64,000 nt of DNA. Source: Ascidiella aspersa. Lineage: Eukaryota. The translations under genes and the position numbers were made by a program. Below the pieces are notes generated by a model. The model was not told the DNA's origin. It saw only the letters and a list, made by a program, of their open reading frames with translations, and ran no database searches. This document shows positions 3,401 through 42,600 of the stretch, piece after piece. The stretch lies in contig OZ004610.1 of the NCBI GenBank assembly GCA_963924565.1, forward strand, positions 32,426,001-32,490,000, read 5' to 3'. The stretch's first letter is position 1, and every line of letters starts with the position of its first letter.

Positions 3401-6400
3401 TTACGTTCATCCACATCCACATGCTTTTTTTACACATTTTAAACGTTTGACGTTAAATACAGATTTAGGAAACTCATTAGCCTCATTATTTTATTATTAG
3501 TTTGCACAAAAATTCGTTTCTAAAAATAAATACACTTACTCTGTCGGCGAACTGAACGTGAATTCTGCTTTCCGATCTTAAAATCTGAACGTAGAGTGGA
3601 CATCTGGGCGCGAAGTCCTTTACCGCCATCGTGCGGAGGATCGTTTTCTCGTCGGCCGCCACACGGTCGCGCTCTTGTCGCGAGGTGAGAATAAAGCAAG
3701 CCTCCGCTGCGTCAGCTCTAATCAAATCAAGTTGTAATCAATAGGTTTTTACCCGAGAGCAACCTTTCAGATTAAAGTCGAACTTGATAAATAATTGCGA
3801 AGCGAAAAAGGTCGAGTAGATCGACATCATCTTGATTAAGACGTTTCAAAAAGAGCTTGTATCATCTTCAGTAAATGTCACTTTCTACTTGAAAACTGGC
3901 AATGCCTTACAGGCAAAATAAATATTTCTGGAAATTTTAAGAATTTATTTTCTGTTTTATCTTTTTTTTATAAACAGTTTAATATCATCTAACACGAAAA
4001 CATGAATCTCTCTTTTACATTTGATTATTTGCGGGAGAATTCAGTTTTTCAGCTTTCATTTCTAGTTTGGCCTAATGAAGCACGGTTGAGAGAAAGCTTA
4101 ATGAAGACAAATAAATTTCTACTTTGACCTGAGAGCACAGGTTGTTCAAAAGCCTGTCGAGATTTAGTAAAACTTGTCTTTAAACAGTGACCTGATTACC
4201 TTTATAAAAATAACCATATTCAAAAAAGGTCACTTACTTGACTCTGGTGAGGTCTTTCTCGCGTAGCACCGACCCCTGAATATAGATGACCCTCTCCGCC
4301 CAAATTGGGACCTGTAGGAAGCTTTTAAGGGGCCCGTCCAGCTCACAGGGGGAAAGGAGAACCACGTAGTACTTTTGTAGGCTCGGGTGTGCGTAGAACT
4401 CGTTCAGGAACTCTAGGATCACGTCCATTCGTAGAACTGGAGAGAACCGTTAAAAATTGATATTAGTGGTTGGAGGTTGTATTAAGACGTAGGGTGAACA
4501 TTGAAGCCCATACTGAAGTAGAAAGCATTTTGAACATTTCGAATTATTCTTTATTTGTTGGAGACTTTTATTTCATATAAAATGCTACCAACTTTCTTAT
4601 GGGCTTTGATATTCTTCCTACGTCTTATATACTTAAGTAAGCGACGTCAGAAAGGCTAGATCAGAGTTGTTGTAGACGCATGTGTGCATCTTTCATTAAA
4701 TGATGATATGGGTAAATCCCCTTCAATATGTTGCTTGTACTAACATAATGTGGCAAGCATTGGCAGTATGGTTGTTTCTCGACTCATCCTTTTTTTTTTT
4801 TTTTTTTTTTTTTTTATTGATTTAACGACAATCAGGTGGCAGTCTTACGACTGAAGAAAACCTTTTGTCGCGACACCAATTACAGCGAGTAACAAACAAT
4901 TTTAAGGAACAACACGTAATAAATTAATACTGGACACTGGAAAGAAATTGCATCAAAATCTACGAGAAGCTAACAAAAAGTCATGTACAGCGTTAAATAA
5001 AATGAGAGATTCAGAGCAAATTAAATCAGGATGTCCAAACAGAATGTAATTCAACAAAGTAGCATTAGACAAGGAAAACAACGCAGTCGGTGACATTACA
5101 GAATTATCGACAAGCAGTGAACACTCTATCCTTTCTGGGCCTGTGTAGCTCAGTTGGTAGTTTTGTCGAGGTCACGAGTTCAAACCTCACTACAGGCCAG
5201 TTGTTTCTCTAACCTTCCTTGCTTGCATCATTAATCGACAGACTTGGTAAGTTTGTCAAAGGTTACCGGTGTAGTGGAGCACGGTTGAAACACAATGCAA
5301 ACCACAGAAAAACAGCACGGAAAAAACGAGTTTTTCGCGGTTTTGTTGCTAAATGCTTCAATTTAGCTTTTTTTAACATAAGTTTGTGGAAAAGATGATA
5401 CGACTTGACGTGGCGGAATTTATCGACCAACTTAAAAAAAGCATAATTAGATAAAAACAAAAATTATAAAAATCCTCGATATAATCCGATCGTAAAACTA
5501 AATTGAAGTGAGAACATTTGCATAGAACTGCAAACCAAAAAAATTAAATGCAAAGTTTGTACAGTTGTTCATCACTCACCGGTTGCGCACACCACAACAT
5601 GCTTCTCAGTCTTAGCTCGTTGTCTGCTATATTCGCCTCCTTGTTTCTGTCGTTCTGACCAAAGAAACGAGATCTCCTCAAGCTATCAAAACAACAACGT
5701 GAAGTTTAAACCCGACAGCGGTTGAAAAATTGTGTTCCTACACAAGGTTGGCACGTATTGGCTGAAAGCAGTGATGTACCAAACGAAAAACGGATAATTA
5801 GTTTGCATAGTTAAAGGGCAAATTTTCGTGTTAAACTTGACTGCCTTTCGAAAAAAAGGGAATTTCCAGGCGGAATTTGTTACCAACACGCTTAGATTGG
5901 GAAATTAATTTCAGAATCAAATCTTTGTGGTTCCAAAGTGCTTTTTTAACTCTCCCTCAGCTTTCGAGGCTTTTAGACAACATTAGATCAACTTTCACGG
6001 ATTTTCACTTTTCAAAATGATTCGGCTATTGTTTCGAGGTGTTCTTATAAGTTTCTCACACAATTCTACGAAAAAATTTTTAACACATTCAGACTTTTTA
6101 TTATTAAAGACCTAAAATTACTTTATTTAATGTTTACTTAATTTTTTTTTCACTTAGTTCAGAAAAAAATCCCTAAATGACATCAAAAAATACCAATAGT
6201 TGAAAGAAAGATTGTTTCGCAACGGCGCCTTCTAAACCTATAGCTTTAGCTGCAAATAAGATAAATTTACAGAGTATTCAAAGATGTTGTAGCATAATGC
6301 CTGGAGGTTGTAGTTAGACGTAGAATGAATATCAAAGTCCGTTTAGAAGTGTGTAGCACTCAAAACTTTTCGGAAAACATAAGGTTTTAATGACCTTATA

Positions 6401-9400
6401 GTTGTTATTGAAGGAGTTTTTAATACGCAAATCACGACATTCAAACACACTTTAAATTCAAAGGCTTTATGGTAACCCTATAATACGTTCTCTCCTTAAA
6501 ACAAGCGTTTACTCATAAAAACTCAATCCAATTCCAACCTGTCCTGGAATAATGCCGAGAGCGACGAATATAATGATGATGACGAGTAGTTTTGACGGCC
6601 AGATGGTCGGTGTGATGTCACCGTATCCCACAGTACTGAACGTTACCACAACAAACCAGAATGCGTCGAACAAATCCATGTGAAGCCTGCCTGCTCGCTC
6701 CAAATGCTGGACACCGCATATGCTTGGAAGGAACAAATATGTTATGTCAGCGTTTTTTGCGTTTTTTATGAAAAAAAAAAATAATTACCCCAAACACCAT
6801 TTGGGAATTTAAACGAATTATTGGCTTTTTATTACAGAAGTCTAAATTCAAATTGGGCCAATTTATCGATTTCCATACATTACACAAATCTTCTAGTATC
6901 CAATTGGGGCCATAAAACAACGTTTGAATATTATTTCGACAAATATCAGTTTAAATCCTTGTTCCCCAACATAAATATCTTTTCAATTGATTCTGCTTCA
7001 ATATTTTATTTACTTTTAATGTACGCATAATCGCATATGCTTGGAAAAACAAAAAAAAATAAGGCCAGAGTTTGTTTTTTGCGTTATTTACAAATCTGTT
7101 TTAGTTTTTTATGGAAACAACTTTCAGAGGAGCTCTTTCAAGTTAATATGCCGTTTTAGTTAAACCCTTTTGCCTTGTGGCTTTCTTTTCATTGAAGGAA
7201 CGTATTCTAGAAACACCGCATATGCCTAAAAAAAAACAAGTTACGGAAAGGTCTACAAGTCCAAACAATAACGCTTTATTACATCCCCACAATATTTATG
7301 CAAAAACATACACGTTTTAAAAAAATTAGGATTTACTCACCAGGTTATAAAAAGACACAGCAATGTGGCCACTAAAACGCAAACTTGATTGAACATTGCG
7401 CTCTGTTGCTTATGCGCAGCTCGATGAAGATCGTTCTGCAAGCAACATTTAAATGTATAGCTATAGCGTATAGCTTTGGAGCACAATGGTCGGAGGTTGT
7501 AGTTAGACGTAGTAAGAATAGCGGAGCCCGTACAGAACAAGGTAGCATTTTGTGAAAGTTTCGGATATTTGTTTATTCATTGAAAAAAAAAATGATACCT
7601 ATACTTTTGCATGGGCTTTGATATTCTGATTAAAATGATATTAACGATTAAATATTATTTTATCTATATAGAATTCATATTAAAAAAATATAATATAGCA
7701 ATTTGCAATGTTATAACAACATGCATTGGTGAGAAGGCACTATACATACTGTTAAGGCAGACTGCAGAAAAGAAAGAAACAAGGAGAACACCAGCATCTA
7801 AACCTGGTTAGTTGCATTATCTAGATCAGGGTGGTCCCAAATACTGAAATTGTTTGGTTATGATCACACTTTTCCGGTTATACCATGAACTAAACCAGTT
7901 TCCTACTTCTTACCCAATTCGGATATATTTTTTTAATGTGTTTGACCGGTTTGTGAGAAGCCACATTGCGTCGTATATGGAACTCTCCTTCTAAATTTTT
8001 TTTCGCGCTTCGCGCACACAATTTTACCTAGTCTCATACCATTCGAATTTATCTACGCACAAGTCCGACGATAGCAGCAAGTTTCTGGAGCTTATATGTC
8101 TTTCGATGTTACTTTGTGACGCCATCTTAAACATTTCATGTCCCGACCAAACGATGCAGTCAGCCTTGGACCACCCTGTTCTAGATTCTTCAAAACACCT
8201 CAATATCCCCACTTACCATCATACGTTCCAATCCCGCTTTGGCAAGCCAGATGTTGAGAAACACAGGAACGAACAAGCATTGTAGTGGAGGCCAGAACAC
8301 CTGTGTACAAAATATCGGCGTAAACATTTTCTTCAAATCTCCAAGCCAGCGACCACAACATCAGCTTCATTGCAAATGTATCAGGCATGGACGAAATTTG
8401 TGAGTTCGAACCTCAGTACAGGTTATTTGTTTTTCTAGCCTTCCATCATTGATCGACAGATTCTAATGGCATGCGATTGCTTACGGTGCACCCGCCTGAA
8501 TAAGTCTTAAATCCTAATTAACATGATAAGACTCAAACCAAATTAAGACCCTAACCCAGTGGTTCTTAAACCGGGGTACATGGACCCCTTGGGGCTCCGT
8601 GAACTAGTTTTAAGGGGTCCGTGAAGGCCAAAGTGAAATATTAATGTGTATTTTATTTTAGGAAGTAATAATTTTTTCTAAATAAAGAAATTAGTAAAAC
8701 GCTTTTACACTGAATGTATTTAAACTATTTTTTTCACATTTTGTGGACCGAAAACTTATTTCTAAAGTCTATTTGTACTGTGACATCAATTTATGACGTC
8801 ATTTTTGAAAAATTCTTGCTTACCGTGGTCCACGCGAAGAAAAACAAAATTTTAGGGGTCCGCGGTGAAAAAAGTTTAAGAACCTCTGCCCTAACCTGAC
8901 GTAATTAGACCAAAACCTTGCGGAATAAGCCCTAAACTCACCAAAACAACTCCTAAACCCGTCTGCATAGATTTTAAATCCTAATTAACATCTAAACGCG
9001 TCGTAATAGTACAAGGACTTTGGTCTAATTGCTGGCCCCGTTAACTAATCAGCCACTTACTGTTGCAATGAAGGGCAAACTGCAGCAGATCTCCAGGAAC
9101 CAGTCGACGCTTATAAGTTGCTGAGCCAGGTTTCCCTTGTAATTCGCAATCGTGTTGATGATCTTGTGGACGCAACTAACACAAGCAAGGATTACCTGCA
9201 TAGAATAAGGTAAAGGTTTGTTGAAAGTGGTTTTAAAGTCATTTTGTTAAAGTAGAAAAAACGACAACAAAACATGTTGTCTACTTGGGAATTAAATGTG
9301 GAACTTCTGATTAAAAGTAAGTCATAGAAATGCCTCAAAAGACGTTTGGTATGACTTAGAGATAAACCAGGTGAAAAAATACCTAATCAGTTTGAATTTT

Positions 9401-12400
9401 AAAATTAATTATTTACTCACAATTTTTTCGATTTAAGTCGTTTTCCCAAATGAAGCGTGATCAAGATAAGTAAAACATATTCGAATATTGTTTCAATTTT
9501 AGAAAAATCTAGGTAACCTTAGGGAAATGGGTCTGCTGAAAATTGTAAAACTTAGGTGCTTAAACGTTTAGTAACTAGCGGTCCAAAACAAGTTTTGGCT
9601 AAAAATCTTGTTTCAGGCATTTTGCTTTATAAAATACTTGCGATTAATCGCAAAGTTTAGAATATCTGTCCTATGGATAAATATGTTGTTGCTACCAGGC
9701 ATAGTATATTTAAAATAGGTTCGTCTGGCGTATATTTCTTCAACCAACGTTTCGGCTTACTATACGGCAAGCCTTCGTCAGAGACTGACACACATAACCA
9801 ACAGGACGCAAAATAAAATATCTGTCCTATAGGATTTAAATTCACGATGTAATTTGTTAAGGGTTATAAAAATGAACACATTTTAGCAGAGCGGCGACGG
9901 TCAATTTTACGGATATATATCTGCATTGAATAGGGTTTTTTATACTTGTACTGCAGACATTTTTCTAGACATTGATGTTACGTTGGTTAAAAAAATATAT
10001 GCCAGAGGAACCTATTTTAAATAGACATTGATGTTGTTATTTTTGTTAGGCTATAGCCAAACACAATCGGTTGACAAAAGGTTAAAGTCAAATGATTGTT
10101 TTCCTGGTTACCTAACCAACCAGCAAGTATGTTTACGATGAAATTTGTTCAGATCCCGTTGCTGTTTTTAAACGTAAACAAAAAATGTCTCGTACGTTTT
10201 AAGGTGCACTTGTACATCGGCGCGAAATGGCCATTAATAATTAACAACCTATCACCTGATGCGGAAACCATATTGAAACGCGTAACGAGAATTATCTTAC
10301 CGGTGTCAAATTGTCACGTCATTTGGCCGGTTAAAAAGATCAGTTTGCAAAACGCATTTCTAGATTGACTACGTTCAATCTCTAATTATAAACTAATGTT
10401 TAAAACTTGGCTGAAAGCATTGATTCATCAAAAAGTGTGGCCAATCCTGAGGTATATGTTTGCTCCAAATCGGGGCTTCCAAAATTTTTCACACTGCGAC
10501 CCCTCTTAAGTCATTAAACCTTTCCGCGATTCTTTAGTTTTAACAGGTTAAAACATTAAATTTCTTGCTGTCTGCTTTGTCACGCACTTGTTGAAGTAAT
10601 GTGAATTTTGAGGGTTTTCTTTTGCATTAAGTTTGCCGTTAGCATATCAAATAGAAAAAAACTAACATTTAGATCAAAAAAGTATATACGGACTCACTCG
10701 CGGCTCCCAGTTTGTGAAACCCTATAGTCTAAATATAATTATTTAATTTTTATTCAAAGTAGTGTTATTATTTATATTTAAAGTAATCATCAATGACTGA
10801 CGAGGTAAAAGTTGCCAAGATACGAAAAGCAAACAATAACAGGCCCAAAAAGCAAGAAGTCATTTTGAAAGAATGTTTCGATCGCAAGTTTTAAAACTAT
10901 TTTGGCAGGGCGTGTCAAAAGTAATCATGGACTCTTAGCCTAATTACACTTGTCACTACCATTTTTTATCATCTTTTTAATATTTGGCCTCATAACTTGG
11001 CCAAATCCAGAGGTAGTCTGCTTTTTTCCTATTTAACCGTATAGAAAACAGAGTGCCGGCTAATTTGGGAAAAAGGCTGGCCATTTTATATCATGCCTGC
11101 CTACAAGATGTGTTTACATTACAAAGGTGCCATTGTGGTGAAATAAGACTCAGGCCCGTTGCCATTAATATTTCATAACAAAAGGGCCGAGGTCTTGCCA
11201 TTTTTAAGTTGCTTTCGTAATCGTTATTTCGCACTGACATCTGCCTGAACGAAAATGTAATATCGAGGCTATAGTTGGGAAATTTAAGTATATGCCAATT
11301 CTCCGAAATTAGATGGCTTAGCCTGGCCTTGAACGTCTTACCTTTGGCATTGAGCATACAAAGGATATTACTGCTGTAATTACTTAGGTCAATAGCTTGC
11401 CTTAAGTAAATTTAAGTCACTGTTTTCAAATGATTTGACTTGAATTAAATAGTTCGTGCACCTCAAAAATATCGGCTGATAAAAATCGATACAACAGTCT
11501 ATCTCCAATGTTTAAATTGTTACATAAGTATAGTGGCAGTTGTGAAAATTGTTGTTAAAATACAAAAGAAATCGAAAATAAGAATCGAAATAAGCATATA
11601 GCCACGATGCCTTTGCATCACAGAATTTCACGTACGTCTACGGACATGTCACATACGGATCAACGCAGCTTGTCTGCGTATTTTTGTCAGTTTTTCTATT
11701 GTTGCCTAAATATAACAATTTAAGTAAACATCAAGCCATGTAGCTTTCACTTTTACCTAAACGCATATAATTTTACGCACGTATACGGACATGTCACGTA
11801 CGTATACGGATTAAAAGCAACTTGTATTCCTGTCTTTGTCGGTTTTTAAGTAAACATCTGGCCATGATACCACTTTTATATTGAAACGCATATAAATTTA
11901 CGTACGATTTACGTATACGGACATGTTACGTACGTATACGTATACGGAGCTCACCTGCACGAGCCAGATGGGCGTCATCCGATCGACCCAGAAGATGGTT
12001 TGCCACGAGAAGTTGTACTGCGTCAGCCACGATGGATTCACACCGGTTGAACGGAAGCTCGTAACGTTGCGCGTGCACATGCCGCAACTAGCGATGTGAA
12101 AATAATACCAGAAGCGTTAATATTACAACGTAAATATGTTACCTGAAGACAGAGGTTCTTAACCTTTATCTCTTGCAACACATTTGAAACATGTTGAAAA
12201 TGAATAAAGAGTTATTCGAAACGTTCAAAATGATACCTACTTCTGTATGGGAAAGTAGATATTCTTATTACATTTGAAAAGGTTTGATGGACTGGTCACC
12301 AGGGCTGTGTAGTCGGACTCGGGGACTCGGGTAAAACTTCGTATGACTCTGATAAACTACCCAATTCCCGAGTCCGACGTGCACATGCGCAATGCCAAAT

Positions 12401-15400
12401 TTAAAACAGATAAGGACGTAGACTTTTAAAATGTGGAATATTTTTCAATCATGTATTGTGGCTGGGTAAGTTAAATGACACCCCATGAGTAGATTGCTGA
12501 ATATCCACATTAAACCGGTGATATATTCGCTGTAAAATCGGAATCGGAATCGGGACCTATGGACCGGATTCGGTTGTTTTTCGGACGCACCCAGTAATAG
12601 GAATAATGACTAATTTTCACCAAAAATTCGTTCACAAAAGTCAATTTATTTTTTTGCTTGGTGAAGAACCTCGGACTTGAAAGATAATAAACAACTAATA
12701 GTCAATAGAAAACCTGATTAGGGGAAAGACAACTTTTACAATCTTTTGTAAAGCGCTCTAAATGTTATTTTTTAAAGGAGGAAATTTAAAGGAGGAATAT
12801 GTCTTTAATTTTGCTGTTATTTTTTTTTAATTATCATACTATTATATGGCGGGGAGTGTTTTGTTACGCAAATTTACTAGCAACACGATAGTACGAGTTT
12901 AAAGGATAATTTGCAACTTAAGATAAAGGCCTTAAGGAAAGCGATACTGCTGTTATAGAAGTCATACTTCGGCCAGAGGTCATATGTCAGTTGTTTGGTT
13001 ATGTCCCAAGTGGCATTAAATGTCTTCGCGTACAAAAATAGCAAGAAAAGTACACACACAGTGAATTTCCGACATTTCGGCCTAGTAGTAGAATTGGGCT
13101 GATAGTAAAAAAACGGCTAAGGAAAAAGCAGCTATGAAAACCACAAGTTTAACAAAAAAACGTCATCACTAAATAATACACGCCAAAAAAAACAAAAAAA
13201 CAAATACACGCCAGAAAAAAACAAAAAAACATTACGGGATCGGTTTAAAAAAGATTAAGAACCACTGCTCTAGGGAATAGACACAGTATAACGCACAGTA
13301 CTTGTAAAAGCCATATATATATGGCCAAAGGAACCGGCTTTAAAAACAAGTATTTATCTCACCATGATGTTTCTTTGTAGGGGTCATCGATAGCTGCTCG
13401 CACAATGTACAACACAACAGTGAGAAGCTTCAGAATAAAGATGAAAAGTCGAATGCGGAGACCTGAGTGAAAATACAAGATCGTGGAACAAATGTAAGTT
13501 CAATGTTTTGAGTAAAGCTGGTTCACATATTTAAAATTTAATCTCCTGATTTAAATGTATAGTGCGAGTAATGATACGGAAACTGATAATGGTATTTAAT
13601 GTTTCTATGTAAATATTATATTTAGCAACTGATTGAAGTATCTTACTATATCTGAGACCAAACTTTAAGGTACATATCAAATTGCAATCTACCCAAACTG
13701 AAAAACGTGTAAGACCATAACCCTATTCCTATATCCTTACCTTCATTTCATTTAGGAAAAACACCAATGTGGATATTAGCTTACTATCTAAATCGCCTTC
13801 CAGAAAACATTATAATCTACCTAATACTTTTACGCTCGTACAAAAACATTTTATACGCTAAAATTTGACGAAAAACTAAATTCTATTTACATTTAACAAC
13901 ACATTAGGAGGATTTAATTAAAAAAAGTTGACATGTTACGATGGGAGCCCAATAGCAAGTCAAATAATACAAAGTAAAATATTTTGCATTATTGTCTATA
14001 CTGATAAAATATCCCGATCCATATTTTACTGGTGACTGCCGCCACTTTTCGAAAACCGCCGACGAAAAGTGATTTTTCAGACCAAAGCCGGATTCCATTA
14101 AAAGCCACAACCTTAAACGAATCCATTACCTGGACCAAAGCAAAGCCGTCAAATCTGTTCGATCGTTCACTTGAAGCGTTATGTCTGCCTTTTTCATTAA
14201 CGCGACCGCCGCCTAACATTAATTAAACATTGGCGCGCAAAAATCGAACACATTAAACGAACGGCGTTTTGCGTAAGTCTGAGGATTGGTGGTTCGAATC
14301 CCTGTCTTGACTTTGTGTTTTTTTTCTTTTATCAGTTTTTTTTACCAGTTTCTTTTTCTTTTTATGTATTGGTCTATTTACTAAAAAAACATTATAGAAG
14401 TCAGGGGTTCGAACCCCATGCAAATATTGAAATTGATGCACCAAATGAAATCTATGTAGTAGCGTCATAATGAAATCTACATTTTACTCAGTGTTTGCAA
14501 AACGATCTTCATATGGTTTTACGTTCAAATCTCAGCCAAGACGTTTTTATTTATTTGGCCTATCGCAAATTAATAACAATTTTTCGTACAGTTGTTGGTT
14601 CAACTTTGCCTTTTTTTCCAATTCAGAACACACTGTTGTATAAAAATAAAACCTATAAGGTTATGAGTTCGAACCTTGGGGCGTCACATGTATTTTGGCC
14701 TGGTCTTATTTTGCAGTTTATTTCTGGTAAAAAATTTTCAACAAACCAATCCTGGGTTTGCAGGTTTACAAACTTATGACTGGCGAAAAATCCAAATAAG
14801 GTACTAAGCTATACTTAAAAAAATACACACACATATGTGTTCAACAACTGTGATTCTCACCGTTCCGCGATGCCTTTTGTTGCACTATATACGCAGGTGT
14901 ATTTCCAACTTAACGAAAATGCAAGGCACTTACTTATGGTTTGATTCTTGACGAAGTAGTAGCGAAGTCGTTCCATGAAGGTGCTCTCGTTCACAAATAG
15001 CTTCATCTGCATCCTGAAAAAAAAACATTTTACTTTTAAGACTTCGAAAATTGCGATATTGTAAACTAGTCATTCTGAAACGCCTTCCCAGTTAAGCCAT
15101 TTGCGCAAAGAGTTTATAACGATTTTATGCATATTTGTGCAAACGCCCCGTTTGGGGTGCATAGGGTGCCACCGATAAATGGTGATAAGTTTTTCTAAAC
15201 CACTCTATGTTTCGTTTGATGCACATGATGTTGAACTCTCACGGTCAGGCAAACAACTATTTAACATTAATTTCCATGACGAAATTCGGCAAAATACCTG
15301 CCTAAAAAAAAATAAAAAATCGGCGTCTGTGTAAATATTATACAGTTACACCTGCTAGAACAGAGTTAGTTCAGAATAAATTGGTGCATTTCTTGATTTT

Positions 15401-18400
15401 GGTTCTGTAGATTTTATAGTCATAATCCCAAAACAGTTGGAAGCACATTTGGGGCAAAAACCCGCCACAGCAAGGTCTTTACCTATTGTGGGCTGACAGT
15501 ATAGGTGGAGCCCTTGGGAGAAAAAAAAAATTTTATCGGGCTTTGGAGTGTCCATAATGATAAAATTATATGTGACAAAATTATTTGTAGCTACATAAAC
15601 AGAACAACAAGCCACAAGAGTGTTTACGAAATAAATATGAAAATTCCCCTTTGAAGAGTTTATACATTTTCGGTAAATATTGAAATATAGCTTAAAACCA
15701 ATAAATATTGTCCCAACACGGTAGACCCTCTATTATAAAAGTAAAGGTTCATAATCAAAATATAAGTGCAGTTCAATGCAAAAAGCACATACTTAAATAA
15801 AATAGCCCATAAGTACAAAAAACCTAACCTATGAGCGTATTTACCAATTATAAAGGGATTCTTCCGACATAAAGGGGTTCTTTTGACTAATATGTATTAT
15901 GACAGCAACCGTACATTCATTGAACGTATTTACCTTTTCGGGGCTGACAGTGTAGCGCTAGAGCCGTTTGGTGAAAGAGCAATTTTATCAGGTTTCAGAC
16001 TGTCCATTGTCTGTGGAATCGGGCCGTTTTGATTCTGATCGCTAAAACTCGATTTTATATGTTCCTCAGCCTCGGAAATTTTTCTGCTTTTCCGAACGGC
16101 CATTTGAAGGGCTTAAGACCAGGCTTAAAGGGGTTACATCCCGTGATTCACGTAGTTACTTGTGGTAGTTGTAACCTTAGCACTTATACCATAGCACATT
16201 TCGCAAACTTACGCTGCAGAAAGTTTAAAAATTGGTTGATAAGCATGGAAATGTTTGTCGTATACACTTAATATACCATCTTTAATAAGACAGTGGATTT
16301 ATCTTTTATTTTAGCTTTAGCTTCTGTACTTCATTGTTTAGCTAGATGGAATCTGGGTACATTAAGATATCCTATACTATTTGATCGGAGCCGATGCCCG
16401 ATGCTTTTATAAAGTCGGGTTGTTATCGAGAAAAGATGTGTTGGACATTCCTATACTAACAGATTACAGTATGGCACTATTTGTTCAAATTACCTATATC
16501 AATAAAAAGCACAATTCCTTCAAACAACCCAATTATAATTGGTTTACAATTGGCTTGCAGACAAATTTGCTGTAAATTCAACTCTCCATATGTAAAGATT
16601 ATTCGCTTGTACAGTGCGTGACCTGTCCACGTCAAACCAGCAGACTTGGGGCAAAGTCGAACTTGATTTCGTACCGTGACCAGAGACAGCCTGTTCTGTC
16701 TAAGCGCGTATAAACGTCGATGTTTTAATGCATTGCCGAGTTTGTATCCTATTTCAATAGGTTCACCATTAAAAACCAGTATATTCCACGCAAAAACATT
16801 ACAGTAAAACTAACGTTTGTTTTTAACTGCCTCTCACACAATACGCACTGATGTTTCTTCTGAAAAAGCTATATCTGGTCTTGCCATGTTTTTTTTACTA
16901 TAAGCTTATTTACGATTAGAAACAACCATTTGTAGAAGTGTTCTCAACCATTTTTCGCGACAACCCAAATACAATGCGTAAAGATAACAGCGGATCTCAA
17001 GCGACTTATTTCTCTTTACTGAATGTTTTATAAATGAATAAAACGTAAGATAACATGAATAAGTTCGAAATTAATTCATTTGAACCAAGTCTTCATATTC
17101 CACCATCAGTTTTCTATAATTTTGTGACAATATAGCTCTCAATAAATCTAACTATTTGACGTTTTGCAGTCAACGACCCAACCAACCAAAGGGCCCTATT
17201 TGGATCGCGACGTACAGATTGAGAAACACTGATCTATTTAACCTACCAGCGTACAAAACTACCATATCAAAGTACAAAAACAAGCGAAATTTACCATGCC
17301 AGCGTACAAAACTGCCATACCAGCGTACAAAAATGGGCTAAAATTTACATTAACGTTTATATCAGCGCACAAAACGAGCTAAAAGGGGGCAAAGTCAAGG
17401 CGACAACATATTTTGACAAAATCGTGAGCGTTTGAAACAACGACAAGCGGTTGTGACAATTCAACCTTGTAATTAACCAAACAAAGAGCAAAATCCGTGA
17501 CTGTGTTTTCCACGAAAAAGTCAGCAACTAAAGAGTGTGAAGTTAAAGCGAATGGTCCTTGAATTCAAGTTTGACATTCGAGCTGCAAAATCACCTGTAT
17601 TTTACCGCTACCCAAACTATATCAGCGTTAATCGAGCAGATTAAAAAAGTCAAAAATTCGTAATTTTGCAATTACCGTTTCACTACCACGTGGTGCGTTT
17701 TTTCACATAAACCTAATACAAAGCTTAACAAAAATCCAAATTGAAAAACTAAAAGTGGACGAATGGTACTTTGGGTTCAAGTTGGAAATTCGAGCTGTAA
17801 AAGCACCTGAATGTTGTACAGACAAGTTCTCACTTAACCAAGACGACTCTATTTTCCCATTTACACAACGCGCAGACTCGTAAAGTGCCAAATGTGACTG
17901 GATTGTCTGGTCGAGTATCGCGGATCCGTTTAAACTCTAGTAGGAATATAAAAGCCCATATAAAAGAAGTAACATTTTCAACGTTTCCCATAACTCTTCA
18001 GCTATTTCATCATGTTTGGGAAATTGTTTGGACCATGTTGGAAAAATGAATAAAGAGTTCTAAGAAATGTTTTAAAAGCGAACTACTTCTTTATAGGCTT
18101 TGACATTCATTCCACATCTAACTATACAATCTTAAACCATTATTTAAAGATTTTTTCGAAACGTTCACAATATGCTACCTACTTCTTAATGGTCTATTAT
18201 ATTCATTTTACGTCTAACTACAACCTGCAGCCATTGTCTTAGAAAGTATACAAAACGTTCGCAGAATGCTACCTACTTCCGTATGATTTTAATATACCCA
18301 CATCTAACTACAACGCCCAGCCATTGTGCTCAACCTTAAACTGTGCTTGGTTTTCGTCTCACATGACACACACCGCTACTTTCTCCGTCAAATATTAGGA

Positions 18401-21400
18401 GACATTTGCGGCCAGATTGCCTTAGATTGTCTAAAAATAGCCGTTCAAAGACCGCCAGCTCGAAAATGATCCTTGTACCTCGAAACGCGGCGAAGTTTCG
18501 TAAGGGAACGACGATACATATCACCGCAAAGTCACAAGACCCGTGTCTGGCCAGTTTGTCTGGCTATGGTGAAAGAAACTGCTTGTTATGTCTAATTGGT
18601 TTGGCTAAATTCAGTTTTGGAAAAAAAATCGAACTAAAAGCGAAATTGGGTATTTGAAACCACAAGACGCTGTTTAGTCCATCTTTTTGCTTTATTTTTG
18701 GATATTTTCGTTAGTTTTACTCTTTTGTGCAAAAACCTCCACTCTCAACCAGTCTACATGGTCACAAAAAAGTCTGGAAATTTGCCAGCATTTTTATCCT
18801 CTATTTTTTAGTCTGGAAATTTAAGCATTTTTATCCTCGTACAACACAAATGTAAAATTTGCAACGAAAAGTAGATAAAAAGGGCCACAAGATATGTGGT
18901 GGCCTTGAAAAACGGGCATGTTCCATCCAACTGTGTCGTATATGCTTTATATCATATAAAGGCATTACATCAACAACACCTGAAACTGTGCTAGCGTGTG
19001 CAGTCGCATTAGCTAAACGGTTTGCATGCTTGTTTGCAAGTATAAGGCCCAATTTAAATCAATTGCTTTCGCTACTATTAAAGAAATCTGTTGGTTTACC
19101 TTGTTTTTATAGGACTATAGATATGTTTAAAATGCTGAAAAATAGCCAGTACCTTTGCTGCATGTTTTTGCTCATACAACATAAAATGTTAAAATTTGAA
19201 CTAAAATAGGAAAAAATCTGGGAAAATGGGCCTAAAAAATTAGATTAAAGTAGCAATAGATCTAATTTGAACGAAAGATACAAAAGTAAAACGTTTAACA
19301 ATGAAACACTAGTAAAATTAGACATATAGGCTCGAAAAACGTCTGTGTTTCGCCCACCTATGATCATATCAGATAAAAGCATTACATCAACAAACTCGTA
19401 TCTCTATGACTTAACAGATGGGCGTTCGCACTGTCTCAACGGTATTGTGGCATATTGTAACACTGGTCGGGTAAGCTGACTTTACGCAGTCTCATGCAAC
19501 TTTTGATTCTCCTATAGTCGCCAAATACACGCGACTTATTTCTTTTAAATGTAATACGTATTCGTTTAAATTTCAAAGCGTTGTGCGTTTATTATACTGC
19601 AGCTTTTTAATGTTTCCCCTTGACAAAGTATTACACCATTTTTTTTATTTCCAAAATGACAGTTGCATTAAAGAAAGAGTTTTTTTAACGGTTTTATGGC
19701 TTATGGCAATGTTTTCTGCAAAATCGATATGAACGCCGTATTTTGCCAATTTTGATGCAAGAAAACGACGAAAATGAATCAATTCTTCAAAAAAGTAAAC
19801 TTCTGCATGTTTTAATGCTGCATATTGTCAATATATACTCAGGCTTTTTGCTTTCCAATCTGCACTGAAATATTTCTTCAGATTTTCGACACCGAAAGTA
19901 GTTATTAAAGCATGATTGGCAGTTAGGCAGCCCTCGGGCAAAATAACAGACTATGAATCATTTCCGCGGCGCCCACATCAAACCTTTTTTGCAAAAGCAC
20001 ACAAACAGAATAAGAGGTTTTCGCATTAGCTTAGCGTTCCTATACCTTCATTCGCGGAGACCGGAAAACTAAAAATTAGTTAAACAGCGAACCTTTGGCG
20101 ACAAAATTATATTCATCGAAGTTTTAATGAGTAACTCAAACACAAAACGAGTAGCTTAAATATATTTAAATTTAATTAATATGGGCCATTTCATCGCATT
20201 GCTTTAGCCCAGTGGTTCTCAACCTTTTTTCTTTCGTGGCCTATTTACGTTGCAAAAAAATTCTGTGGCCCAACAAATGAAAGAAAAAACTGTAAAATAG
20301 GTTTAGGACAAAACACAGCAGAACATATTTTAAAACAGATTATTCATTCAACCGTGCATTAGTGAGATACTTGCGGCTGAACAATAAATTTACATTCCCT
20401 TTTAATTCCTCCCCAAGCCATTATTCCTTGAAAATTAAATATAGTGACGCATATGAAACTAAATCTAGCTTTTTAAAATTGGTCTGTGGCCCACCTCAAA
20501 TGTTCCTATGGCCCACCAGTGAGCCATGGCCCACTGGTTAAGAACCGCTGCAATAGCAAATCATGCTCTGGGCCCATCGCAGTAAAACTAACCTGTTAAC
20601 TGCTATATATATAGTCGGCGACCCAACCAAATTAAACGGCGGTACAATTTTGGGTCGCGGCCCGTGGGTTGAGATACACTGCATTAGGTGAACCGAACTA
20701 GCAAACGCTTTCCGTGTCGAATCTTTCTTTTACAGCAACCCAAGTTTTTTAATGCTGCAATTTTTTTAAGGCTGGCGATCTAACACAACCGCTGTAATAT
20801 TTCGCTCTATTTTAAAATGCTTGATTACCATTGCTTTTTCAACACAGTAAACATGCTATCCATCAACAAGTAAAAACGTGGAAGTACTTAGCTGTACATT
20901 GTTACAGTCAGGTTCAGAATAAAGGAAAACCCAGGTTATTGAAAATGACTGAAATCACATATTGCAACAATCGATAACTCAAACCTGTTTCATAATACTA
21001 ACTTACAGTCAATCCTGAAGTCAAGTTAGCATCCACGCGATATAAAGCAATATTTGCGTTATGACTATAGAGGTCCCACAAATAGCCTACCTCATGGGTC
21101 AACTAAATCGTTGCTCAAATTAGCTGTTTTTAATTATTTTACGTTATCTCAGTTGTTTTCGTGAAAACAGATAAGCAGTTGTATCTATTCCGAAAGCAAA
21201 ATTCGAGCTGATTAAAGATAAAATCACTCTTTAATACTAAACAATAAGGAAGCAATGTAAGGCGACGTCAAAAACAGAATAGTCTGGCTTTTTCGCATTT
21301 GTATTATCGCTCTATCGTATCTGCAACAACCAAATAATGGCCATATGCTGGCCTTTTATCGCTGTAGACACAACGTATTTATGTTCCGCGATAAGGGTGC

Positions 21401-24400
21401 GATACACTGAGAATACATAGGAAGAAATATTTCCTTTATCGATCGAGACAGAATTACTCATATTTCCAAGAATACAGTTCGTCTGTACATCGATATTGTC
21501 TGTTATAAATGTTTACATTGCGTCTATGTCACTGTAATAAACAGGGGTTTTATTCTGTTATGTAACAACCTTATGTACCACGCAGTTTAATAGTCGTCTG
21601 CCACGTTCAAGTAATTGCCCTTGCCTTTTGTAATGTGCTAAGTTGCTATGCTACACAAATAGTAAACAACTAGTCGTTTATATAGTTGCCCTTGGATCAG
21701 AATTACACCTGTCCTACAAGTACTACATCTAAGAAAGATGGCTTGAATTCTGTTTCAGACAAAATATTCTATTATCGTGCCTCGAAACCTAATCCATGAT
21801 TGCCATTCGACGGCCTAAGGTAGCCAATAACATTGGAGCTGGGTGTAATTTACCATTGTCCGGGGTTGAATTACAGGCGTTCAATTCTAGTGGGGGCTTT
21901 GTTGGGTACAATAACAATAATAAAGCCATTGATGGGTGATTTAGCTTTCGAAAAAGCGTTGTGGGCTTAAAAGGCCACAGACCGAATTTGAACCAAAAAA
22001 GGTACAACAATGAATTATAGGAATGAAAATTAACGGCCTTTCAAGATGGCATTGTAGTTGTCTAGCTCAAAATGATCTTCTCCCTTTTTTAATTTTTTTA
22101 GATGAATTTACACTTGTGTTTGCTAGCCGTCAATCAAATCCTAGAGAGGTTTGAGACAGGGATAGTGCAACAAAATCTAAATTACAGCGCTGACCTTGAT
22201 TATTATATAACCACTGCCACAATAAACATTACTTGTAGCTTGTAGGAACTGACGATTTGAGTTTTATCGTTAAATGAAACGTATTACGTAGGAGCATATC
22301 TGCGTAGGATATATATTATGTTAACGCTGAGCTTACCAACTGAACTGAAACTTAATACACATGAACTTAGCTGCAATCTGACCCTTTTGAATTCATACCT
22401 ACCAACGAAAACGTCATTTCAATAGTACACCGGAAGTATTTGAGAGAGCTAACTGAAATACGATAATCATTCAGTCGTTTGCTGCAGAAAAACAATAATA
22501 TCTCCATTTAACAACCACAAAACGCAGTATGCTATACTGCGTATAGTTTACTCAACCTTTTTAGTGATGACCTAAATACTAAGCGCATGTTTAACTGCGA
22601 AGCCTTGGACACTAAATTCTCTCTACTGAGCTTTCTGTAAGCGAACAAAATATGAGACATTAACAAAAAGCTTTTATGAGCGGTGGACATTGTTTACCGG
22701 CCACCGGATTTTCGTAAAAGTAGCCTACGCATTTACTTAACATGGTGATTTCTCGCTGAAGGCTTTTAGCCTGGCCAGCTGTTAACCATGTAAAACACAC
22801 GTTTACCGCATCAATATATCAAGCTGCGGCAAAAGGAGTATGCTTTATAAGCTTTTAAAATCGCATTTCTACAAACTTATCCACGTTGAAGAAATCATAA
22901 CTAAAAGGACGTTACCTGGTAATGTAAACTTGCAACCGCTTGCAACTTTTATAAAAAAATATATCGTTAAGGGTAACTGCATCACTGGGAATAAAAGCCT
23001 ATTTACATTTAGACGTAGAATATTAAAGCCTATAGTTGGCTTTGTTGTACGTTTAGAACAACTATTTATTTATTTTCAACATGCATTTACATTTTTTGTT
23101 AAATATCAAATACTACCAAAAAGTAATGATAGAAATAATTTAAGCGGTGACCACATATAAAACTAAATTAGCAAAACTTTTAATTCTTTGAAGCTTTTGA
23201 TAAACCCTTGATTAAAGTCTGCTTATAACAAGAAACAGAGATATTTTCTATTTTGACCTAATATTAACATCAACACAAAATGATTACGCAAAACATTACA
23301 TCATTACATCCGATTATCAGACTATTGGTCGCATTTTTTCAGGGTTTGTTGTTATTAAGAACACAGCAAAAAGTCTGGGCAGTTTAATTTGCCTAATAAA
23401 GCGAAAAAATCCCTTTTTCAAACATAAGCGTTTTTCGCCCCACCGCTATTTTGGTATCCGAAAACTTTCTCCCCCTCGTTTAGGTGCTTTTGTACACAGC
23501 TTTGGTAAAACGGGGCTGCATTTAAAGCATGGCTGCGGAGTCGGTTAAAAACAACCCGAGTCCGACTCCGGCCAAATGTATGATTTTGTCGAGTCGCGAG
23601 TCCAGCTCTGACTCTACAGGCTGTATTTTACCCATTTACTCAACAAACTTAGAGTGACTCATATTGGTGCCATAATTGATCCATCCGCATTACATGGTTT
23701 AAAAATACTTCACCATTTGCTATTACACTTTTGCAACTTACATTTTGCCGCCTAAACAGTTTTAAAATCTTTTGTATATTTAAACCAAGGCTGCGGAGTC
23801 GGACTCGGGACTCGGGTAGTTTTACGTGGTCTTACTCGAGTCCCGAGACCCGAGTCCCGAGTCCGACTCCGACTCCGACTCCGCAGCTCTGATTTAAAGT
23901 AACGCAAACTGACCATATTACACAAATATATATCTTTAAATTGTTCAGCCCTAATTAACTCTAAGCAAAATATGCCTAATTTAAAAAGCATGTGAGTGAA
24001 TGAAAAAAAATAAAGCCAATACATAAACTTAACACCCTTGTAGGTAGGTGTACATATTTGTCTAATTCTAAATCTAAAAGCAGTTGGCACTCTTTAACGA
24101 CAACTTGTGTTAATTAAAATAATAATACTTCGACCTGATGAGGCACGGTTGTGCGAAAGCTTGTCAAGGTTTTAATATAATTTGTCCTAAAACAGTGCCT
24201 CCTGATTTCCATTAACTGATTAGCTGCTTCGACACAAAAAAACAAACAAAACTGCACGTTATGATATTCTTGGGTCTCTCAACACAAAGATATCCAAGTT
24301 CGAGCAACAAGATCACGTTCGCCTCATAATCTAAATCGCTCTTCTCGCGTTTCAGGCTAAATCAACATTTTTTTAGGTAGTTTCATCGAAACTGGTTCAA

Positions 24401-27400
24401 ATAAAGAAAACCAACAAAAGTCAGTAAATCGCCACCAATGAAGCATGGTCGTTTGGGCGTGCTTAACTCCCAACAACATTGAGCCTTGTATACCTCCTAA
24501 GCTTGTTTAAGGTGGCATAGATTTGCACGCCCATGCTTCAAGCTGTAAATCTTTCTACTGTCATCGACTGTTAAACGCAGCTTTGCAAGTCACGTACACC
24601 AATTTTAGCCGTACGGCGACAACAAACTCTATCAGTTGTTATTGGAATCGTGAATTTAAAAGCACGTGTATAAATGGCTCGGCGCATAAAGTCAACGCAA
24701 TGTGCGGTTTTTGAATACAATCTCCTTCAAAAATAAAACTGTAAAAGAGACGTGGTTTCGAGCATGGTGGTTGGAGTTTGTAGTAAAACGTAAGAATCAT
24801 TTTGAACAATTTCGAATATTTATTTATTTATTTTCAAGATTTTGAGAACGAACTGCTTTCGATGTATTTTCTTCAGCTTTATTGTCACTTTTTCCAGAAG
24901 AAATTACGTTACAATTTTTACACCAAAAATGTCAATTAATGTGCAAACCACTCCTTACATTTTTTCTCCTTAATAAAAAAACAAGTAATCAAGAAAGAGT
25001 ACTTTCTGCTTTAAAAAGACAACGTGTTATCTATGCTACAAAAACGCGACTTTGGAAAATAGCTAATGTCTAACGGTCCAAAAAATTGTGACATAGCTGC
25101 TACCAAAAAATGCCTTTTTCCCCTAGCGACTAACAGAAACAGACTTCTAAAATTGCCATAAAAACAAATCATTCTATTTGTCAGCATTAACAAAACCTCT
25201 TCACAAACTACAAAGTATTAAAGCAGCCTTCTAAAAGGACGCTCGCTTAAATAGCTTAAAATTCGAAAGGTCACTCAATTTTCTGCCTCCCAGTTTCTGA
25301 CTAGCGTACTGTGATAACTCCCAAGTATTCTCCCAAAAGACCATAGCAAACGCGTGGGCGGTATTTTCTTTTTTAGTGCCTTGATTTTGTACGAACTTGG
25401 GAAACCTTTCCAGATTTGGTGAAAATTTAAAGGTTTAAAATAGTATTTTATTTTTCTAGTTCCTTTTTTTGTAGGAACTCTTGCAAACCTTTGTGAGATT
25501 TGGTAAAAATTTAAAGTTTTTACAATAACGAGAATAAGGGATTATTTAAGGTAACAAACAAAATAATAATTGGCAAGCATGGCCAAAGTTCTCAAATCAC
25601 GTTTTACTAGAATACGACTTCACATTCTCAATTTACTAATTTTTTCCAACTTGCGTTTATTATGGGTTAGTCAAATTATTTAACTAGGGATATCAAATAC
25701 TTAATGTTAACATAAGTCACGCTATCCGGTCTATACGAAATGACGTCATTAGAAATAAACAAATAACAAAAAAATGGTATAATTCAGGCGTATAATGTTT
25801 TTTTAGTTTAGTTACCTCCAACAGCGGCTATCGGTTACGATTTGATAAAATCGTACATAGCTGGTAAAGAGGTAACTAAACTAAAAAAATAATATAAAAA
25901 TAATGCTTCATAATGTATATTTTGTCTAAAGTTATTTTCGCAAAGAAAAAAAATTCATTCTATAATTTGTTTCTATTCTTTTTAGTACAACCATTACAAT
26001 TTAATAAAAGAAAACGCGAGTTATTATCTGACCGCGGCAAACCAGTTGCAGGAAAACGAAATGCGCAATAAAAACTAATTCGGACGAATCGCATGAAACG
26101 CATTAAAATCTAAACCTTTGTGATTTATAATGCTAATAATACAGAACTCGCGCAGCTCGTTTGACTCTGACTGAAAGACAATAAACGTCCCTTGTGTTAA
26201 ACTGTGGCCCGGGAAAAATCAATAATTCATTGTTTGATCAACGACATGTCATTTGCTTGATCAAGATTTGAACTCGCGACCCTTAGATCTTGATCGCCTG
26301 TTCTTAAGAACTTGGCAGTTAATCGTTCATCGTTGAATATATACTCGGGAAATCTAAAGTATAAGAGATTTATAGAGATTCAAAAAAGCGATATTTTCAT
26401 AAGATAATTTTAATTTATAAAAATAACAGCTTTTAAGGTTTCAAACTTCTCGTGTATGTATAATTGTGTATTTGTGTAAACGTTTGACAAAGACGATAAC
26501 AAATATTCTGCCACAAAATTTTATTTGCTCTAACTATTGGTAATATTTTTGGTAAAAATTAATTAAAATTCTCTAATGAGATGGACTATCCGGTTTGTGA
26601 ACTACTAAATCTCGCATATAAACGTTTTAGAAATTCAAAAGGCAGGTCGGACGCTTTTTTATTTAAATAAAATATATTTTACTTCAAGGGTTGTCGAAAT
26701 AATAAAGGCTTTTTGGAGAAATTTAACATGGCTGATTTAATGCACTACAAAAGTCCGTACATTTTGAAGCACTCAGGATATTTCCATTAAAAAGGTAAAC
26801 TTCGAATTCGCTTCATTTCTCGCCAAAGCATTGATTCACGGCCAGTTGATCACGTTATGATCAAAGCCCCAATAGCTTGATTTGTTTAATTTGCGGCGCT
26901 TTTTAGTAAATGGCAAAATACAACTTGTTTGCGTGAATTTTCTGACAAATTAAACATTATACAAAACACCCTAACATTTCGAGAATTCCGGTGAACAATT
27001 TTTGTATATTAAGTACCTCATGGAACGCTATTTACCAGTATGATCGAAATAGTACGATTACTATGCTAGGTTTCGATCAATTCAAACTGCATGAACAAAA
27101 CACGTCTTCATTTCACTAGTTCCAAAACTAAAATACCAGAAATCAACCTGTTACTAGTCTAAACCTGACTAAAGTGGCTATCAGCGGGTTTCCCCAAACC
27201 AAGCCCAGCCACAGCCTTTTTGAGAGTCAAACCAAATGTTTTTAAACCGATATCGCCACACCCACACAGCAACTGACACCTATGACCTCATATGAAAGCA
27301 AGTATTCTTCACAATTTTCTGGGATAATATCAGACACTGTCATTTTATAGATATAAGGAAATATTTTCCACAAGTCCTATTTGTATAAGAGACTAATGGT

Positions 27401-39600: not shown

Positions 39601-42600
39601 CGGTTTAAATTAAATAAGAGTAGTTTTATGATGTTAGATTCAATAAGATTTAATAAGATCAGTAGATTTCTCTAAGACGTGAAGAAATTGCGGAAGCGAT
39701 ACGAAGACATTTCGCTGATTATTTTAAAAAAATGTGACGTCATAAAGTTCTATCTAAACGTGACGTCATATAGTTTTAGTTACAAAATTTATTTTCGAGG
39801 ATGCGATGAAACGAAAGACGCTTTTTATTATTTTTTTTTAACCTAATATTTGCTATTTTTCTTATGATTTCGCTGGTTAGAAAAGTTCAGTTAAAATAAT
39901 TGGGTCGCCAAAGATTCACTGTTATACTTACGCTTAATATTTGGGTCGCCGAGAAAAAAGGTTGAGAAACACTGACTTAAAGGTATTGGAGTTAAATACA
40001 AAGTATCAGACTATAAGCAGTAATGTTAAAGCTTACCGACGTGGCAAAAGGCGCAGTAGAGAAAGAGCATGTATGCCGAGTGGCCGAACACTTCCAGTGC
40101 AGTTCGTCGCAAGGTGTGGTGCATCAGCACGAACTGCGTGTGGCCTTCGAGGATCTAAAAAATAGAATTGAAGTTGAAAGTTGCGTGTGACCTAGAGTTT
40201 AGAATCTTATGTAAGAGCTAAGTTCATTTTGCCAATAATTGGCCCTGAAGAGTCGGTTAATTTTTGTTAGTAAGTGAGGTAAACCATTTTAAATTGTAAG
40301 CGAAATTTTAAATTGTGTAAAAACCGATATTACTTGGTGTGGAGCCTAGTGAAAACAACTATGTTTGTAAAAGCTACAAATTTAAATTCACCTTTACGTT
40401 GTAGAGCACGTTACGACAATTTTTGTTTGTTTATTTTGTTAACAATCCCTGTATAAGCAACTTGAAATAAATTGACCTTAACTGTGTAGAGCATTGTGAA
40501 GAACACGCAGCCGGAGAGGAGACATCTTGTGATGTAATCGAACTTCGCAGCCGCGTGGAAGAGTTCAAATGTTCGGTGTGGGTGAGATTGGAAGTAGGCT
40601 TGCAAGGCGTGGTCTGTGTATGATGCTCTGCGTTACAAAGTGAGTAGGTGAATTCAAGCTACCTTTTCTTACAGTTTTGATTGTATGTTTACAGTTACAC
40701 CAGGTTTTCCAACCTTTTATGGCTTGTGGCACCCCTCGGAAATAATAAATAGATTGTAGCGCCCTTACAATCGCGGATCTAGAAATTTTGTTTGAGATAT
40801 TACGTCACAAAGTTTCGTCAAATGTGACGTCACAAAGTTTCGTCAAAATGTGACGTCATAAAGTTCTATCTATACGTGACGTCATAAAAAGGAACCTTAT
40901 AAACAATACATCGTTTGTTTAGTTTGATCTTCAATACAAAATCTACAACGATGTTTTAGGTTCGAGCATATAGCAAAACGCCTTCATATCGTTTAAGTTG
41001 CAAACTTTATTTTCGAGGATACGATGAAACGAAAGGCGCCTTGGGGCTATGACACTTTTATTAAAATGGGCTAAGAAAATTTGCATTTATATTTTTTGGG
41101 GGGCATGGCCCACAAACACGGAGACGAAGACATGAATAATATGGAAAGCCAAATCAATATGCTATTGATGGTTCACTTTAGGGCTCTTATTAAGTTTAAA
41201 TCCAAGCATTTACCTATCCCGGTTGAAAATCTGCGTATCCATGAGCTACACTTTCACAAGAAGGGTTACAACGTGAACTTAAAACAGATGTGAAAATCTC
41301 GCCATGCTACAAGCACTTGCTGAAGAAGCTAAACGTTATCGCTAATATATATTGCACGAGCAGCGTTAAGTGCCATTCACCCTGACGAAGGCGGCTTACA
41401 TAGGTTGACAAAACGTTCGTAAAGAATTACAATTCTCAGAGGAGCTGTTTTTTTTTGATTAACATATACTACACTTGATTATGTGGAAATATATAACGCT
41501 ATGTTGTAAGCTACCTGGTAAGATACATCGCCACAGCCGCTACTGACGTCATCAACGTGGTGACGTGTATGATGTTCCACACGCTGTGAAAGAACTCGTG
41601 TCGTTCCTCAACGATTTTGTTCGATATCTCGGTCAGGTTGTAGAAAACCATCGCGAGGATTAGATAGAGCGATATGTTCACAATAACGTCGGCTGTGGAT
41701 CTAAATGCGAAAAAAATACTTTGCTCACGGTCGATAAGTCCGACAGGAGTGTTTCAAATCCTCATGACATCTGGCAAATATCTTAAAAAAGTCAAAAAGG
41801 TCGGGTAGATCGGCATCATCTTTTCTAAGATTTATTTTTTTAAGGTTAATGTATTTAACTGAAGATGGTACAAGCTCGTATCGAAACGTCTTAACCAAGG
41901 CTTTTTTACATCAAAATTCAAACTTAAGCTATCTTAAAAGAACTTTCGTACAATTTATGTAAATTATTTTCATTATTGCTCGCGGAGTTCCGTCTTATTC
42001 CTTCAATCAATGTTTAATTTCAATAGGGTAAACTAGAAAGAATGGCCTTTCTTTGCTATAGTGCTCCAAACAAAAATTTTAAACAAGAAAAAGGAAAATT
42101 TTGAGCCTTATTAAAAATCAAGCCCATGAGGTGATAAAAAAGTTTTTTGTGACTAGTTTATTTCTCACATTTAGGCATAAAATAGAGAGATGACCGTTTA
42201 TTGCTAAAGTACTCCTCACAAAAATATTCTATAATTTTATAAAGAACAAAGTTTTAACTTTTAAGCCAGTGGTCGGCAACCTTTTTCTAGTCGCGGGCCA
42301 CAACCAAACTTAGAAGGTCTTTGTGGGCCGCACAAAATGTTAACTAAGAATTGTGTTATTAAAATGTTAGAACAACTGTAAATCAGGCGGGGTTGGATAT
42401 TTTTTGCACTTAAAACGTGTTAATTACTTTTACAGAGGCAGTAAAGTGTTGACGCAAAGCGCGAAAAAAAGGTTTGTTTGGTTTAAAATTCGAGTTCACA
42501 TTTTCGTCATCCATACTACCAGTAAAAGTGTATTAGAAATAATTTTAGGAAACGCGATAACATTTAAAGTTAATCCTAGCTTAGTGTTTGTTAACCGTTT

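Follow-up and report, generated by a model that had tools for sequence, protein, structure and literature searches.

A truncated Penelope-like element with a probably silent minimal hammerhead motif in a predicted KCNT-family intron of Ascidiella aspersa

A 64,000-nt stretch of the Ascidiella aspersa genome (contig OZ004610.1, positions 32,426,001 to 32,490,000; hereafter the window) contains an exact 14-nt repeat, AATATCTGTCCTAT, at nt 9661-9674 and 9817-9830, which encloses 142 bp carrying a hammerhead-like motif on the minus strand. In a preliminary description, this segment was taken to be a very small ribozyme-bearing retro-insertion that could cut the intron of a K+ channel gene if a partner copy were available. 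The locus raises the question of what the 142 bp represent and whether the hammerhead acts on the transcript of its host gene. The answer that we consider highly probable is that they are the last 140 bases of a Penelope-like element (PLE) family situated in a predicted KCNT intron, with a hammerhead likely silenced through masking by an inverted fragment; in this account, the mode of integration, the arrangement of the exons, the masking by a duplex and the absence of cleavage are predictions.

The insertion and the intron around it comprise the following features:

9817-9830, no strand: target-site duplication, copy on the 5' side of the element (repeat and family comparison)
9661-9674, no strand: target-site duplication, copy on the 3' side of the element (repeat and family comparison)
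9677-9816, minus strand: 5'-truncated PLE, its final 140 nt, made up of the tail and the 3' part of the pseudo-LTR
9677-9704, minus strand: tail of about 28 nt, in which the ATG at 9702-9700 opens the first nine codons of the PLE ORF
9196-11954, minus strand: predicted GT-AG host intron of 2.76 kb, between exons 12087-11955 and 9195-9061 (frame and splice signals)

The duplication around the 142 bp is exact, as first described. Since 34 runs of 14-nt direct repeats at 30-300 nt spacing occur in the window, such a repeat alone is not rare, and it was counted as a target-site duplication because it sits at the fixed 3' end of the family and at the point where homology stops. The last 3 nt of the copy at 9817-9830 (ATT, minus strand) are also the upstream sequence of the family, pointing to microhomology. 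In the window copy, the duplication is intact, private divergence is about 3%, and 4 positions carry a base found in none, or in just two, of the relatives that extend over them.

The host gene, on the minus strand, belongs to the KCNT family: the pore domain of KCNT1 matches its pore exon (E 1.5e-22). Seven exons of this strand, each bounded by AG/GT, can be joined into a stop-free frame of 270 aa. The element and its hammerhead run in sense to this gene inside the predicted intron, with the 3' splice site about 550 nt downstream of the hammerhead, so that the earlier placement in sense within a K+ channel intron is borne out. Its numbering as intron 4 is plausible but not fixed: the intron is the third among the seven mapped exons, the first mapped exon opens at an AG acceptor, at least one further exon probably lies upstream, and a search for an upstream exon with short motifs found nothing. 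From one RNA run (X7), about 6 in 100 were sampled and aligned to nt 6400-26300. The KCNT exons had almost no depth in this sample, and 97% of the aligned reads continued into unlike sequence, that is, came from repeats elsewhere; with KCNT so sparsely covered, no splice joint was seen among the matches listed, nor any pile-up of molecule starts or ends. Among the best rows listed for the DNA reads there was no joint across the insertion, and no empty-site allele was seen.

The hammerhead of the window copy is composed as follows:

9740-9788, minus strand: minimal type I hammerhead (motif, family and covariation)
9788-9782 and 9745-9740, minus strand: 5' and 3' strands of helix I
9781-9775, minus strand: core CUGACGA, followed by an extra A at 9774
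9773-9767 and 9760-9754, minus strand: helix II, 7 bp with one G-U
9753-9750, minus strand: GAAA
9750-9747, minus strand: palindrome ACGU, the helix III stub
9746, minus strand: U at H17, ending the triplet GUU (9748-9746), with the predicted cut after 9746
9782, minus strand: private C-to-U change at helix I position 2.1 (C-G to U-G), C being present in 29 of 29 relatives

A 9774 is the extra nucleotide that separates position 9 from 10.1, and G 9773 paired with C 9754 constitutes G10.1-C11.1. The type of motif and the cut position proposed in the preliminary description agree with this structure, H17 being the U at 9746. The word "intact" holds for the core and fails for helix I, which is weak (2 bp, a bulge and 4 bp) and carries the private U at 9782, computed to cost about 2 kcal/mol per helix I. 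A search with hammerhead models, which had also been proposed, did not support the call: an Rfam scan of the window gave 0 matches at gathering thresholds. The call rests on motif, family and covariation.

Related sequences were used to evaluate whether the motif could be a chance hammerhead-like string beside a chance 14-mer repeat. Such a coincidence would accord with the lack of an Rfam match, with the 142-nt fold being no more stable than shuffles (z -0.97, uninformative), and with the 16 loose core-like strings and the 34 repeat runs of the window. Set against these are conservation in a family, covariation, a match to the published PLE consensus and the position within a pseudo-LTR. A pattern in which only the core and the CC/GG pairs were fixed matched 1,048 places in the genome, against 0 for the reversed control, which together with the covariation described below rules out a chance motif, and we regard the probability of coincidence as practically nil.

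For covariation, 27 rows were hand-picked to cover different families, with 20 from 19 of the 20 fetched stretches, five from the window family, and two from L093 and L095; L122 was left out as a repeat of L109. Pairing was retained in 91% of the cells. Two-sided changes occurred in 43 cells; shuffling gave 17.7 (0 of 500), and the slid controls never exceeded 15. The shuffle test is inflated, as the rows are related and were selected with a pattern in which core and CC/GG pairs are fixed. These changes affected 5 of the 7 helix II pairs and 1 of the 3 helix I pairs, while measures counting pairs or pair types gave no gain over shuffles (301 and 105 of 500). The G10.1-C11.1 pair was G-C in 27 of 27 rows, but it is fixed by the search pattern. 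Within the family (59 rows, segmental duplicates included), the core was intact in 43 rows, and one helix I pair appeared as C-G in 36, U-A in 12 and U-G in 4, being mismatched or gapped in 7. Helix covariation among genomic copies, whose absence, along with that of cleavage, was to have counted against the preliminary description, is thus present, and on comparative sequence grounds the hammerhead is a genuine family motif. In the same alignment (A1), loop 2 (columns 26-31), which the pattern left free, had G in 27 of 27 rows and A and U in at least 90%, despite differing helix II sequences; this conservation may reflect a tertiary or protein contact.

Copy number had likewise been proposed as a check, and the element proved to be part of a repeat family. 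A search of its own genome returned 655 candidates, 40 of which were scored (57 matches), giving at least 40 copies at 89-100% identity, and a 38-nt core had 29 exact matches in the genome. Over 30 loci, homology stops at family position 139-142 on the 3' side, yet runs to very different lengths on the 5' side. The 5' ends of the family copies are spread without a break between the hammerhead itself and a point about 2 kb upstream, in sequence that passes into the GIY-YIG/RT ORF. Two classes of 3' end were found over L001-L075, with 59 of 95 hits ending at family position 139-142 and 32 of 95 at 107-116, in counts where some places were fetched twice and the first 30 loci had been selected for a match to the whole query. 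Duplications of 13-15 nt flank 7 of the 30 loci and those of 9-11 nt four more. An inverted arm is present in 12 of the 30, eleven of these arms stopping at 108-113, without the last 28 nt or so; it spans the cut site in 10 of the 30 loci, including the window locus and one with an internal gap. This combination of 5' truncation, inverted 5' arms and an optional tail (here about 28 nt) is the layout of PLEs, for which 5' truncation, an inverted arm and an optional tail of 30-40 nt are described in part of PMC8557442. Apart from the usual inverted arm, family copies are often grouped at distances of up to about 300 bp, and the window is one example of this:

G000:C3:30960441-30960779, C4:2660031-2660352, L009 and L024: clustered family copies

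The distribution of ends also bears on a second alternative, in which the 142 bp constitute a non-autonomous element of small size, resembling a SINE or a retrozyme, with fixed ends of its own and mobilised by Penelope machinery. Its small size and clean duplication would suit this, and many copies start within about 20-60 nt of the 5' end of the window copy; however, this apparent clustering results from ranking the matches by their fit to the 142-nt query. The ragged 5' ends, continuous with the ORF, and the lack of tandem monomers or of a head-to-tail array of the unit at the locus speak against a stand-alone 142-bp element or retrozyme; both were rejected, and a non-autonomous origin is judged highly improbable. 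Of the earlier "very small retro-insertion", the retro-insertion with duplication stands; the discrete or non-autonomous small element is replaced by a 5'-truncation product, variable in length, of a full element.

The linkage to a Penelope RT/GIY-YIG ORF that the preliminary description had suggested looking for was found at L013, L041 and L039/L040. L013, at 92% identity to the window copy, carries a 14-nt duplication of its own 405 nt upstream; when translated, this upstream stretch yields the C-terminal portion of a GIY-YIG domain, interrupted by one stop. Searching with this stretch retrieved L041, where a 555-aa open frame with RT and GIY-YIG motifs precedes a hammerhead region of 85% identity, and L039/L040, which have the frame in a frameshifted form. 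In Pfam, the L041 frame scores under the curated cut-offs (RVT_1, E 0.0013; GIY-YIG, E 0.045), and by inspection it fits a feature of the Penelope/Poseidon clade as described in part of PMC8557442. Sister families keep long open frames, up to 815 aa, the longest belonging to a complete element with the pLTR-ORF-pLTR arrangement and an RVT_1 match above the cut-off (E 3e-8):

L126:538-3225 (G000:C3), minus strand: complete sister PLE, hammerhead-ORF-hammerhead, with an 815-aa frame

Further family sequence follows the tail in L045 and several other loci, and its translation can be aligned with the N-terminal end of the L126 ORF (38% over 50 aa, E 4e-9); the tail thus corresponds to the first nine codons of the PLE ORF. 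The first in-frame ATG comes 44 nt after the cut site, and about 26 nt of the ORF are included before the element ends, whereas in the Poseidon element PAc of Anolis, as far as described in the portion of Frangieh et al. 2024 (PMC11167929) used here, the ORF starts at helix II and reverse transcription 111-118 nt into it. The longest copy of the window subfamily is about 2 kb; a search with the ORF start for a full-length copy of this subfamily gave 16 short matches, none continuous with an intact RT. At these 16 places (L045:2448-2832, L062-L075), pieces of 40-136 nt of the ORF start lie beyond the tail, several of them fused with the end of another pseudo-LTR, a pattern suggestive of template jumps or of less frequent RT starts further downstream. 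L033 and L034 have, about 0.9 kb from the GIY-YIG start, open frames of about 270 aa with a GSLAR...SDFE motif, in a duplicated segment beside the element; these frames are presumably nucleotidyltransferase-like.

In the mechanism that we favour, the GIY-YIG endonuclease of the element likely made a staggered cut in AT-rich intron DNA, and the reverse transcriptase likely started about nine codons into the ORF, which would account for the tail, and likely stopped after 140 nt, having passed through the hammerhead on uncut RNA. Copying from uncut RNA is supported by the starts of the copies: among 100 matches listed of 101 to the exact 22-mer following the cut, a sample, because the pattern excludes C at the first place, and one read by eye, 1 copy begins at the cleavage site. 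Insertions therefore derive mostly from uncut RNA, as in PAc, for which the portion of PMC11167929 consulted names uncut RNA as the dominant template and explains the tail by two RT start sites inside the ORF start. From the second start site of the family, a tail-less piece would have been inserted 150 bp away in the opposite orientation, as represented by these features:

9980-10021, plus strand: second fragment, tail-less (family positions 67-108), antisense to KCNT
9966-9979, no strand: 14-nt duplication TAGACATTGATGTT of the second fragment, 5' copy
10022-10035, no strand: 14-nt duplication of the second fragment, 3' copy

About 6 of the 100 listed copies begin at family positions 63-68, just 3' of helix II, as does this second insertion (9980), as might result if reverse transcription stalled at the hairpin.

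The second fragment, absent from the preliminary description, lies upstream of the hammerhead in the KCNT pre-mRNA and is transcribed first. It is predicted to pair with 9750-9704 in a duplex of -56 kcal/mol, the pairing of 9750-9740, that is, the palindrome, the cut site and the 3' strand of helix I, with 9980-9990 having a probability of 0.93-1.00 in nearest-neighbour folding, a method that takes no account of proteins, of tertiary contacts in the core or of the kinetics of folding during transcription. The hammerhead of the parent element would cut after GUU either in a dimer formed through ACGU or assisted by the protein of the element. A nested dimer through this palindrome can be drawn for the window copy, with a predicted energy of -22.7 kcal/mol versus -26.7 for a family-type copy and -32.0 for two separate monomers in an inactive rod (CUGACG paired with CGUUGG), energies that ignore core tertiary contacts. 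The window together with 10 kb beside it (74 kb) contains only two family pieces, the second being antisense, and no sense partner copy was found there. With no partner, a weakened helix I and a predicted mask, the window copy would likely leave KCNT splicing unaffected.

A third alternative holds that the hammerhead cuts the KCNT pre-mRNA in trans, with the help of family RNA or Penelope protein, and so lowers splicing upon expression of the family. For such cutting to occur, the core is intact and in sense orientation, potential partners are many, as the exact matches to the 38-nt core indicate, sister families have retained long open frames, and protein-assisted cleavage has been published for one PLE (in part of PMC11167929). 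Against it stand the predicted masking of the site and the predicted energies, in which the dimer is less favourable than two monomers and than that of a family-type copy. Moreover, only about 550 nt separate the hammerhead from the 3' splice site, slow intronic ribozymes left splicing unchanged (Fong et al. 2009, as cited in the relevant part of PMC10919898), and insertion of PAc required the first 172 nt of its ORF, the binding site proposed by its authors (in part of PMC11167929), of which length the window copy keeps about 26 nt. Published motifs of this kind are slow or dependent on protein: a single minimal PLE motif was inactive and its dimers were weakly active, according to the passages used from Cervera and De la Pena 2014 (PMC4209133), and the PAc hammerhead needed the protein of the element for cleavage, according to those from PMC11167929. 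Given also the absent partner, the private helix I change and the single start at the cut among 100, cutting of the intron, as the preliminary description had envisaged with a partner copy, appears unlikely, and cutting in trans is considered very unlikely. That a Penelope hammerhead serves as a transposon-triggered brake on KCNT splicing, inactive by itself but cut in trans upon expression of Penelope RNA or protein, with the inverted fragment retained for its masking of the cleavage site as an antisense off-switch, is extremely improbable. Counting against the favoured reading of a silent copy are the fully intact core and the GUU triplet, which is among the cleavable ones in the part of PMC3138052 consulted, where no rates are given; in addition, the antisense fragment could be taken up by other family RNAs.

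The window contains a second minimal hammerhead family, with TTAA/TTAA as helix I strands and a GUC triplet, at 41849-41899 (plus), 53692-53745 (plus), 43258-43312 (plus) and 3830-3881 (minus). The copy at 41859 keeps the core and the others are decayed, the one at 3871 lying on the KCNT strand with a broken helix II; an intact copy is located upstream of the element in L026. A heterodimer between the two families was ruled out, as the TTAA/TTAA strands do not match. A further motif, CUGAUGA...GAAAGCUU, with a palindromic AGCU stub, is found at 24125-24175 (plus) inside a high-copy repeat. Open frames at about 44200-63200 (minus) resemble exons of a putative polycystin/REJ-type gene, and tandem or local duplications occur at 1394-1546, 48918-49786 and 50291-50739, with units of 39, about 227/640 and 198 nt, respectively.

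The motif and its setting are similar to those of several known systems. With the minimal hammerheads of PLE pseudo-LTRs, as described in part of PMC4209133, the window family shares the CUGANGA core, the extra nucleotide between 9 and 10.1, G10.1-C11.1, a 7-bp helix II, a short helix I, the palindromic CG at 15.2/16.2 and occurrence in the pLTR, mostly as single truncated copies; its supplement includes a Ciona motif among many that likewise end in CGUU. It differs from them in helix sequences, indicating a separate family, and in the helix I bulge after 2 bp, while the window copy adds the private U-G first pair and the masking antisense neighbour. With PAc and the Penelope/Poseidon clade, as covered by the same portion of PMC11167929, it has in common an RT followed by a C-terminal GIY-YIG domain, two classes of 3' end about 30 nt apart (with and without tail), a tail at the ORF start, AT-rich targets and insertions copied from uncut RNA. 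The non-LTR retrozymes of animals (part of PMC7229834) are likewise small repeats with type I hammerheads and dimer-type cleavage, but the window unit shows no tandem array; it forms one continuous sequence with a PLE ORF, and its 5' ends are ragged. Like the CPEB3 ribozyme, the window motif is of a self-cleaving type and is located in sense orientation in an intron of a pre-mRNA. For CPEB3, conservation and unaided cleavage with a half-life of 2-3 min are described, whereas the window motif is part of a recent copy of a repeat, lacks a stable helix III and is predicted to be masked.

As found, the window copy, one of hundreds of truncated copies, matters little and is likely ordinary, inert mobile DNA. 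With about a thousand related minimal hammerheads in the genome, some will land in sense in introns by chance. Were it true that the motif cuts KCNT pre-mRNA in trans, this would exemplify a route by which transposon expression throttles host genes. At the level of the family, the ends observed in the genome agree with a model, derived in vitro, in which PLEs insert from uncut RNA and reverse transcription has two start sites. With many PLE families carrying covarying hammerheads and at least one full-length ORF, the A. aspersa genome provides a usable set for testing the need for protein, and L126 is a good candidate for testing protein-assisted cleavage.
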